Made by a program: the position numbers and the translations under genes. A model generated the notes under the pieces. That model made no database searches and was not told the DNA's origin. It was given only the letters and a program-made list of their open reading frames with translations. A stretch of 64,000 nucleotides of DNA, from contig JBGAJA010000004.1 of assembly GCA_044225175.1 (NCBI GenBank), forward strand, positions 17,631 through 81,630, in the 5' to 3' direction. The first letter of the stretch is position 1, and the number at the start of each line of letters is the position of its first letter. Source of the DNA: Candidatus Omnitrophota bacterium. GTDB taxonomy: Bacteria > Omnitrophota > Gorgyraeia > Zapsychrales > Fredricksoniimonadaceae. Positions 3,881 through 3,976 of this stretch are shown in pieces.

Positions 3881-3976
3881 TGAAAATGACTCGATTGGGG
3901 AGATTAATAATAATTACATTTACTACATAGGATTTGGGGAAAATCCTATAAAGCTTTTGGGTTAGCTTAAATAATA

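Follow-up and report, generated by a model that had tools for sequence, protein, structure and literature searches.

What purpose is served by a short sequence that recurs, letter for letter, just upstream of the first genes of two transcription units of an F-like type IV secretion system (T4SS)? The question is raised by a 64,000-nucleotide (nt) stretch of the genome of a Candidatus Omnitrophota bacterium (contig JBGAJA010000004.1, positions 17,631 to 81,630), here called the window, which contains exactly two copies of the 12-mer TAATCTCCCCAA, each on the minus strand (3895–3906 and 8737–8748). A preliminary description of this DNA proposed a shared cis-regulatory module of the two T4SS units, acting either as an operator with a promoter or as a special translation-initiation signal. 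Our analysis supports a module that is shared, non-random, conserved and located at first cistrons, but not an operator with a promoter; the translation-initiation option fits the evidence best, given a fixed distance to the start codon and the replacement of the Shine–Dalgarno sequence (SD). We favor, with a probability of about 55%, a bipartite element that acts at the RNA level to control translation initiation and is read by a putative trans-acting factor recognizing UCCCC.

Each copy of the repeat stands close to a start codon. From the 3′ end of TAATCTCCCCAA to the ATG the distance is 14 nt at traV (3880) and 15 nt at a gene for a VirB6-like protein (8721), TTCA immediately precedes both ATGs and neither start has an AGGAG-type SD, while the adjoining pilin gene reads AAAAAGGAGAATGT-ATG. 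On all of these points the window sequence bears out the preliminary description, as it does on the absence of further copies of the 12-mer, yet two more hairpins with a C4 loop exist. Taken alone, the repeat is not significant: by our own arithmetic (~64000^2/4^12) a few hundred repeated 12-mers are expected in 64 kb, and a search of the window for TAATCTCCCCAA with up to two mismatches gave 12 matches, with 7.8 expected. The argument therefore depends on comparison between genomes, in which the 12-mer corresponds to a family of boxes with the consensus UAAUnUCCCC, hereafter the C-box. Its run of Cs ends 16 nt before the start codon in the traV unit (3895–3906, minus strand) and 17 nt before it in the VirB6-like unit (8737–8748, minus strand), where the box is unpaired or in a loop in predicted folds. 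A similar sequence upstream of a pilin gene (11441), ACCCCAAA, was rejected as a chance occurrence, being without a hairpin and followed by a gene with a normal SD.

The second part of the module consists of small hairpins upstream of the C-box. Three perfect palindromes had been reported, and all three exist; the coordinates given for two of them (8770–8785 and 8788–8809) were correct, and the third lies at 3927–3949 rather than at 3929–3951. On the minus strand, the leader of the VirB6-like unit carries hairpin A (8788–8809; palindrome GAATTCTTGGGGATAAGAATTC, with an 8-bp stem GAAUUCUU/AAGAAUUC and the loop AUCCCC) and hairpin B (8770–8785; palindrome GGGTTTGGGGAAACCC, with a 6-bp stem GGGUUU/AAACCC and the loop CCCC), the latter having covarying counterparts in other leaders. 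The traV leader carries hairpin B only on the same strand (3927–3949; palindrome ATAGGATTTGGGGAAAATCCTAT, with a 9-bp stem AUAGGAUUU/AAAUCCUAU and the loop UCCCC). Perfect hairpins with a stem of at least 6 bp around a C4 or G4 run are strongly overrepresented in the window (5 versus 0.43 expected; 0 of 500 block shuffles reached 5). All five are intergenic, intergenic DNA being about 5% of the sequence, and all five place CCCC on the strand of the downstream gene, with the strand at 55608–55624 assigned by analogy.

Relatives of the VirB6-like protein (12, at 37–50% identity) all come from metagenomes or metagenome-assembled genomes (MAGs), several of them labelled Candidatus Omnitrophota. 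DNA was compared across nine distinct orthologous loci (identified by L numbers below); a genome scan gave five loci and a metagenome scan two. Plasmids yielded no tblastn match to the VirB6-like protein, and in viral contigs the searches for its relatives, for the 16-mer of hairpin B and for the promoter-plus-operator pattern described below returned chance or unrelated matches only. A common anatomy was found in 12 of 12 leaders (10 VirB6-like sites and 2 traV sites), including 10 outside the window: one or two small hairpins are present in each, with stems that vary and a loop that is always (U)CCCC, sometimes (A)UCCCC. Upstream of every VirB6-like orthologue with enough flanking sequence, the elements follow in the order operator O1, promoter, operator O2, hairpin(s), C-box and SD-less start, and equivalents of hairpin A with other stems stand downstream of O2 in L005 unit 2, L014, L016 and L141.

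Spacing is strict on one side of the C-box and loose on the other. Of the 11 distinct modules tabulated, 10 have 15–17 nt between the end of the C-run and the start and the other, in L002, has 20 nt, while the distance from hairpin loop to C-box ranges from 32 to 48 nt. L010 and L019 tolerate an inserted 21-nt GC hairpin between hairpin B and the C-box, resembling repetitive extragenic palindromic (REP) elements; this sequence, GGGGCGGTTCATAAACCGCCC, is found at 1316–1337 in L010 and at 71–92 and 1320–1341 in L019, with a near copy between the VirB6-like and pilin genes of L019. Leaders are poor in G, which makes up 9.7% of the last 30 nt before the start versus 24% for C. A weak UARAGU element often stands 7 nt before the start, and about half of the leaders have a GUAG(U) core after hairpin B. 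The two C-boxes of one genome are more alike than orthologous boxes of different genomes (AATCTCCCCAA twice in the window; TTCCCCC-WTTAGA twice in L005), a pattern that would fit co-evolution with a genome-specific factor, or gene conversion.

Variation in the stems is compensatory. Among 12 distinct leader hairpins, normalized to a 4-nt loop, 72 of 72 stem cells are paired, six of six pairs have changed on both sides (28 cells) and none of 500 shuffles reached the observed score; when the partner was slid by one column, pairing dropped to 53–58%. Stems as different as GGGUUU/AAACCC, GGAUUU/AAAUCC, GGAUCU/AGAUCC, CGAUU/AAUCG, UUGGGAU/AUCCCAA, GAAUUCUU/AAGAAUUC and GAGUUUA/UAAAUUC present the same loop, and the last of these, from L016, includes a mid-stem G·U pair that is possible on the mRNA-sense strand only. 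In all six leaders that were folded, the hairpins are part of the minimum-free-energy structure and the C-box is unpaired or in a loop. RNAalifold returned no pairs from a plain MAFFT alignment of whole leaders, in which loops of 4–7 nt shift the stems out of register, a problem solved by normalizing the hairpins and by covariance models. Copies of a REP element or of a miniature inverted-repeat transposable element were rejected as an explanation because the stems differ between copies.

The module is specific to these leaders. A covariance model built from eight non-window leaders found exactly two sites in the window, at 47.7 bits (E ~1e-8) and 36.8 bits (E ~3e-6), with the next match at 13.9 bits; hairpin B of the VirB6-like unit is part of the match to this leave-out model (R2). 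A model trained on all 12 modules recovered those 12 only in 166 kb. Rfam 15 contained nothing that overlapped the leaders at E values up to 10 (window positions 3300–9300), and at gathering score the window and five loci gave only an unrelated tRNA and a cyclic di-GMP-I (c-di-GMP-I) riboswitch, so far as these searches go placing the tra leader in no described RNA family. Nor was a leader motif mentioned in the papers searched on Omnitrophota secretion systems, which report secretion (types II and IV) and pilus genes near giant genes.

Where the module lies relative to the promoter is clearest in the VirB6-like unit. On the minus strand, a predicted sigma-70-type promoter (8832–8859; TTGACA-16 nt-TATATT) matches 11 of 12 consensus positions and would start transcription near 8825. 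An operator-like 15-bp palindrome, O1 (8869–8883, minus strand; TTGAT-N5-ATCAA, the sole exact match in the window), ends 9 nt upstream of the −35 box, and a related site, O2 (8815–8829, minus strand; TTGCAGATTCATCAA, of the form TTGYR-N5-ATCAA), overlaps the predicted transcription start. O1 occurs once per orthologous locus at a constant position, 8–9 nt upstream of the −35 box, with a second copy in L016; O2 is kept in six of eight aligned promoters and is, in L016 (1302–1316), the perfect second copy of O1. Among the same eight promoters, which conform to TTGACA-16/17-TAnnAT, TTGACA and TA...T are invariant. Sites of the form TTGAT-N5-ATCAA were recorded elsewhere at 1248–1262 and 1302–1316 in L016, 9843–9857 in L002, 6001–6015 in L007 and 1235–1249 in L010; their half-sites resemble the FNR box, with a spacer of 5 bp rather than 4 bp.

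By their position and conserved arms, the TTGAT-N5-ATCAA sites have the properties of promoter or operator DNA sites. The 12-mer and hairpins do not: their center is invariant, their arms covary and they lie off the promoter. The VirB6-like unit is predicted to have a strong sigma-70 promoter guarded by two operators, a DNA-level control separate from the 12-mer and hairpin motif. Promoter and operators are situated 84–160 nt upstream of the 12-mer, and downstream of the −10 box the hairpins follow at 23–62 nt and the 12-mer at 84 nt, which places hairpins and 12-mer inside the transcript of this unit. At the window copy of traV, no convincing promoter comparable to the VirB6-like one was found. 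A promoter for a leaderless mRNA, with TARAGT as the −10 box 7 nt before the ATG, was also rejected: this sequence is absent at the window traV and in several leaders, has no −35 box and is preceded by a strong promoter upstream.

Hairpin B and the C-box travel with the start codon and not with the promoter. In uninterrupted clusters (L002, L007 and L019), traV overlaps the end of traB, has an AAGGAG SD located within the 3′ end of traB and lacks the module; where traV is separated from traB (window and L005), the module is present and there is no SD. In the window, the separation is made by two inserted genes (4604–4137 and 4153–3977, encoding 155 and 58 amino acids), neither of which matched a protein family. 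Unit 2 of L005 has a second complete set of promoter, O1, O2 and hairpin A (16232–16328), followed by genes for an AbrB-type antitoxin and a PIN toxin and then by hairpin B, C-box and traV; in L020, the promoter region is separated from hairpin B by toxin–antitoxin genes. The true traV start in L005 is a GTG at 17176 (open reading frame (ORF) 17176–17592), 15 nt after the C-box and opening a lipoprotein signal peptide, VFSFILIIIICVFSISGC, so the deposited call, which starts at 17278, is 34 codons short. Short ORFs in the leaders (ATG-TAG and ATG-TAA after the traV hairpin, and a five-codon ORF in the VirB6-like leader) were considered as leader peptides and rejected, their start codons not being conserved across leaders.

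A conserved, oriented center with covarying arms, location within the transcript, independence of the promoter, a fixed distance to the start and replacement of the SD together argue for an RNA-level element acting on translation. The motif's position inside the transcript, its oriented center and covarying arms, the lack of a comparable promoter at traV and the variable distance between hairpin and box likewise count against an operator with a promoter. In the mechanism we propose, variable stems of the transcript would present an invariant (U)CCCC loop, and a single-stranded UAAUnUCCCC would follow before an SD-less start. The two UCCCC motifs would then form a bipartite post-transcriptional operator, one held in a loop, the other at the ribosome-binding region's upstream edge, with a flexible tether between them. 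The trans-acting reader would most likely be a bivalent or dimeric RNA-binding protein, although a short G-rich RNA is possible, and by setting access of the 30S subunit to the start codon it would cause both units to be translated in step. Such translational control would come on top of promoter control through the TTGAT-N5-ATCAA operators.

Several points weigh against this reading. No conserved non-coding G-rich partner RNA was found in the loci examined, where a search for TTGGGGARA-like sequences gave, besides the complements of the leaders themselves, only coding-constrained matches in the genes for TraB and PilB; nor do these loci have a conserved RNA-binding protein beside the clusters. 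A repressor model alone fails to explain why a strong SD is absent from every leader. Two hairpins of the window have no C-box, so the hairpin may have a more general role, such as 5′ stabilization or pairing in cis with a G-rich SD. The covariation count was made on hairpins normalized to a 4-nt loop with A and B positions pooled, and only one informative G·U pair tells the sense from the antisense strand. Finally, what the comparison shows is the anatomy and its conservation, the covariation of the stems, the fixed distance to the start, the replacement of the SD and the specificity to these leaders; for these uncultivated organisms we infer the active strand, the transcription start and the level of action, as well as whether regulation is positive or negative, that a factor exists and what it is.

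Other explanations account for parts of the same evidence. Recruitment of the ribosome independently of an SD, with no dedicated regulator, would have the 30S subunit contact the C-box and perhaps the loop through an accessible G-rich segment of 16S rRNA or through a platform protein such as bS1, and would explain why a canonical SD is absent at 12 of 12 starts and why the module replaces a strong AAGGAG SD where traV becomes a first cistron. The fixed 15–17 nt spacing of the C-box is also ribosome-like, about one helical turn upstream of the position at which an SD ends, and the frequent UARAGU 7 nt before the start could be read in the same way. However, UCCCC resembles the anti-Shine–Dalgarno (anti-SD) sequence itself and not its complement, and we know of no accessible rRNA segment complementary to UCCCC. 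A pure enhancer would, moreover, leave unexplained both the restriction to a single gene cluster and the second, hairpin-displayed UCCCC 32–48 nt away, and we regard this alternative as rather unlikely. Control of transcription elongation, in which the leader would be a Rho-loading (rut-like) region or the site of a processive antiterminator (a NusG paralogue of the RfaH or LoaP type) governing read-through into a long secretion operon, seems to us improbable. It draws on the C-rich, G-poor composition of the leaders, on the GUAG(U) core that follows hairpin B in about half of them and on the way hairpin A stays with the promoter when a leader is split, and long pilus and conjugation operons of other bacteria do use leader elements of the RfaH/ops and LoaP kind. 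Yet the ops consensus GGCGGTAGnnTG is not present in the leaders, the C-box keeps its distance from the start codon rather than from the promoter, and hairpin B and the C-box recur in mid-operon before traV, where one would not expect a second loading site. An intrinsic terminator or attenuator would be expected to keep a G+C-rich stem and a U-tract in orthologues; hairpin B of the window was flagged as a terminator, but L005, L010, L020 and L141 lack the U-tract, and the stems are rich in A and U.

Binding of a transcription factor to the double-stranded, TTGGGGA-centered palindromes and the 12-mer, repressing or activating both units, would account for the perfection of the palindromes, the similarity of many hairpin B arms (GGATT/AATCC) and the proximity of the sites to a regulated promoter in the VirB6-like unit. 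What is seen, however, is a conserved CCCC center that always has one orientation relative to the gene, between arms that vary with compensatory changes and differ even within one genome (GGGTTT, GGATTT and GAATTCTT); a dimeric operator would show the opposite. Spacing to the C-box is not helically phased, given the range of 32–48 nt and the tolerated 21-nt insertion; the sites lie 20–110 nt downstream of the predicted transcription start, and far from any promoter at the window traV, L020 and the L005 traV; and a separate, well-placed pair of TTGAT-N5-ATCAA sites already flanks the promoter. We consider DNA-level operators of this kind very unlikely, and we give no more credence to activity of the opposite strand, as an antisense RNA with GGGGA loops that would serve as a FinP-like repressor or as a GGA sponge resembling CsrB or RsmZ. 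On the plus strand of the VirB6-like leader, GGA is indeed present in all three elements, twice in a hairpin loop, the two-hairpin antisense RNA FinP is the classical regulator of F-like tra operons, and a weak plus-strand promoter-like site (3886–3914; 9 of 12 positions) would start transcription just before the traV hairpin. That site is within chance expectation, however, and no plus-strand promoter is predicted at the VirB6-like leader. A cis-antisense RNA needs no loop sequence conserved across unrelated stems, the mid-stem G·U pair of L016 would be an A·C mismatch on the antisense strand, and a crude motif scan of the window's six frames found no CsrA-like ORF.

The favored RNA-level element has a close architectural parallel in the leaders bound by CsrA and RsmA. 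Both have two copies of a short motif, one in the loop of a small hairpin and one single-stranded near the start, at a flexible spacing of tens of nucleotides (32–48 nt, in 12 of 12 tra leaders), an architecture typical of a dimeric RNA-binding translational regulator. In contrast to those leaders, the motif here is UCCCC and not GGA, which occurs only on the opposite strand; it lies upstream of the start with no SD to overlap; and, in the available sequence, it is confined to one cluster rather than spread over a global regulon. C/A-rich enhancers in enterobacterial ABC-transporter mRNAs, targeted by the G/U-rich seed of GcvB, are likewise G-poor, single-stranded elements upstream of the ribosome-binding region, and an element of this kind could both enhance translation and serve as the target of a trans-acting factor. 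The tra leader differs in its defined UAAUnUCCCC box, fixed spacing and additional hairpin-displayed copy, and in coming from another phylum with no known Hfq context and no G-rich small RNA found here. By analogy, a CsrA-type bipartite operator or a C/A-rich enhancer/target element would be its nearest functional counterpart, yet the tra leader belongs to neither class, since the defining GGA motif and the overlap with an SD were looked for and are lacking.

Other parallels are more partial. In F-like plasmids, the FinP/traJ leader also has two stem-loops directly upstream of a ribosome-binding region at the head of an F-type tra set; in the tra leader, however, the loop is conserved across genomes while the stems change, the cluster is chromosomal with the module duplicated before traV, and nothing in view corresponds to an antisense promoter, traJ, FinO or a relaxase. 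RNAIII of Staphylococcus aureus and RsaE/RoxS, which mimic the anti-SD, also expose UCCC(C) in hairpin loops, a likeness extended by the window hairpin at 32595–32612, which is complementary to its own gene's GGGGAA SD; they are nonetheless trans-acting small RNAs that pair with the SDs of their targets, whereas the motif described here is in the leader of the regulated mRNA itself, with no G-rich SD. RfaH/ops and LoaP share with the tra leader a conserved element in the leader of a long pilus or secretion operon, but here there is no ops consensus, and the element keeps to the start codon and recurs in mid-cluster.

We rate the module as a cis-regulatory leader RNA of an uncultivated phylum, set apart by a C-rich recognition motif for which there is no precedent. 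As a comparatively supported candidate at the head of a conserved pilus and secretion machine, it comes from a phylum without a cultured model and with almost no known regulation, and it could serve as bait for the regulator and help to define a regulon across complete Omnitrophota genomes. If a factor does read UCCCC, bacterial translational operators would extend beyond G-rich, SD-like motifs. For annotation, the lesson is that gene callers may mis-start SD-less first cistrons, as the traV of L005 exemplifies. A broader and distinctly tentative possibility is that Omnitrophota use a new post-transcriptional system that reads UCCCC and so mirrors the Csr system, which reads GGA. Such a system would comprise a C-specific bivalent RNA-binding regulator or an SD-independent ribosome-recruitment signal, and would switch on in step the units of a secretin-containing, F-like machine that is linked to type IV pili and may serve a host-dependent or predatory lifestyle.

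Gene content supports the T4SS context that had been proposed, in that Pfam reveals an F-like gene order, although the VirB6-like (TraG_N) and pilin matches fall below curated cut-offs. On the minus strand of the window, the order is a weak TraG_N-like gene, a TrbC-like pilin gene, TraL, TraE, TraK, TrbI/TraB, two small genes, TraV and TraC. TraV matched at 28.9 bits and the VirB6-like protein weakly to TraG_N at 18 bits (cut-off, 36.1); the pilin matched TrbC below the threshold, and TraK_N is below its curated cut-off too. The first cistron of unit 1, encoding the VirB6/TraG_N-like membrane protein (7606–8721, minus strand), begins at an SD-less ATG, from which its N terminus MDIFGLTPID is conserved, and is followed by the genes for pilin, TraL, TraE, TraK and TraB. 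The lipoprotein gene traV (3416–3880, minus strand) also begins at an SD-less ATG, with the overlapping traC (3546–922) next. TraL, TraE, TraK, TraB, TraV and TraC appear in the same F-like order in all orthologous loci, and no relaxase or coupling protein was found within 10 kb in any of them, the window ending inside its cluster.

These tra-like clusters are chromosomal, several adjoin type IV pilus genes and a secretin gene lies downstream, a composition that is unusual for a T4SS. This was seen at positions 1–8721 and 10970–20501 in the window, 61–21179 in L005, 5334–11155 in L014 and 1–8998 in L019. Downstream of the cluster are a protein of ~150 amino acids and, on the contig carrying P0006, a Secretin-domain protein. 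The remaining window is ordinary chromosome, with a type IV pilus operon, uvrA, panC, folK, dapB and other genes. In the L002 MAG (14568–14832), the cluster ends after traV, and next come a tRNA gene and genes for transketolase; the genome must have traC and the rest of the downstream genes at another place.

The two C-box-less hairpins occur at other genes of the window. One (32595–32612, minus strand; UGCGCU-UUCCCC-AGCGCA) is in the leader of a Bro-N domain gene, and its loop is complementary to that gene's own GGGGAA SD ~40 nt downstream, with which it could form a cis anti-SD arrangement; whether this hairpin is a member of the tra leader system is uncertain. The other (55608–55624, plus strand, the transcribed strand being assigned by analogy only; UGCAUU-UCCCC-AAUGCA) directly follows a TATAAT box, upstream of two small membrane ORFs (55720–55920 and 55917–56018) in the plus-strand region 55572–55773. 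The exact complement of its UCCCCAA, UUGGGGA (55766–55772), falls inside the first of these ORFs.

Small accessory cassettes, mostly toxin–antitoxin pairs (AbrB/PIN, RelE/HTH, an HI1420-like antitoxin, Phd/YoeB and RHH/ParE), are repeatedly inserted in or beside the leaders, at 3977–4604 in the window, 16452–17092 in L005, 1–616 in L020 and 5472–5982 and 13920–14431 in L007; three of the insertions lie directly upstream of hairpin B. In L016, the c-di-GMP-I riboswitch (662–753, minus strand; 77.4 bits, above the gathering score) is located ~500 nt upstream of the tra-like promoter and is divergent from it.

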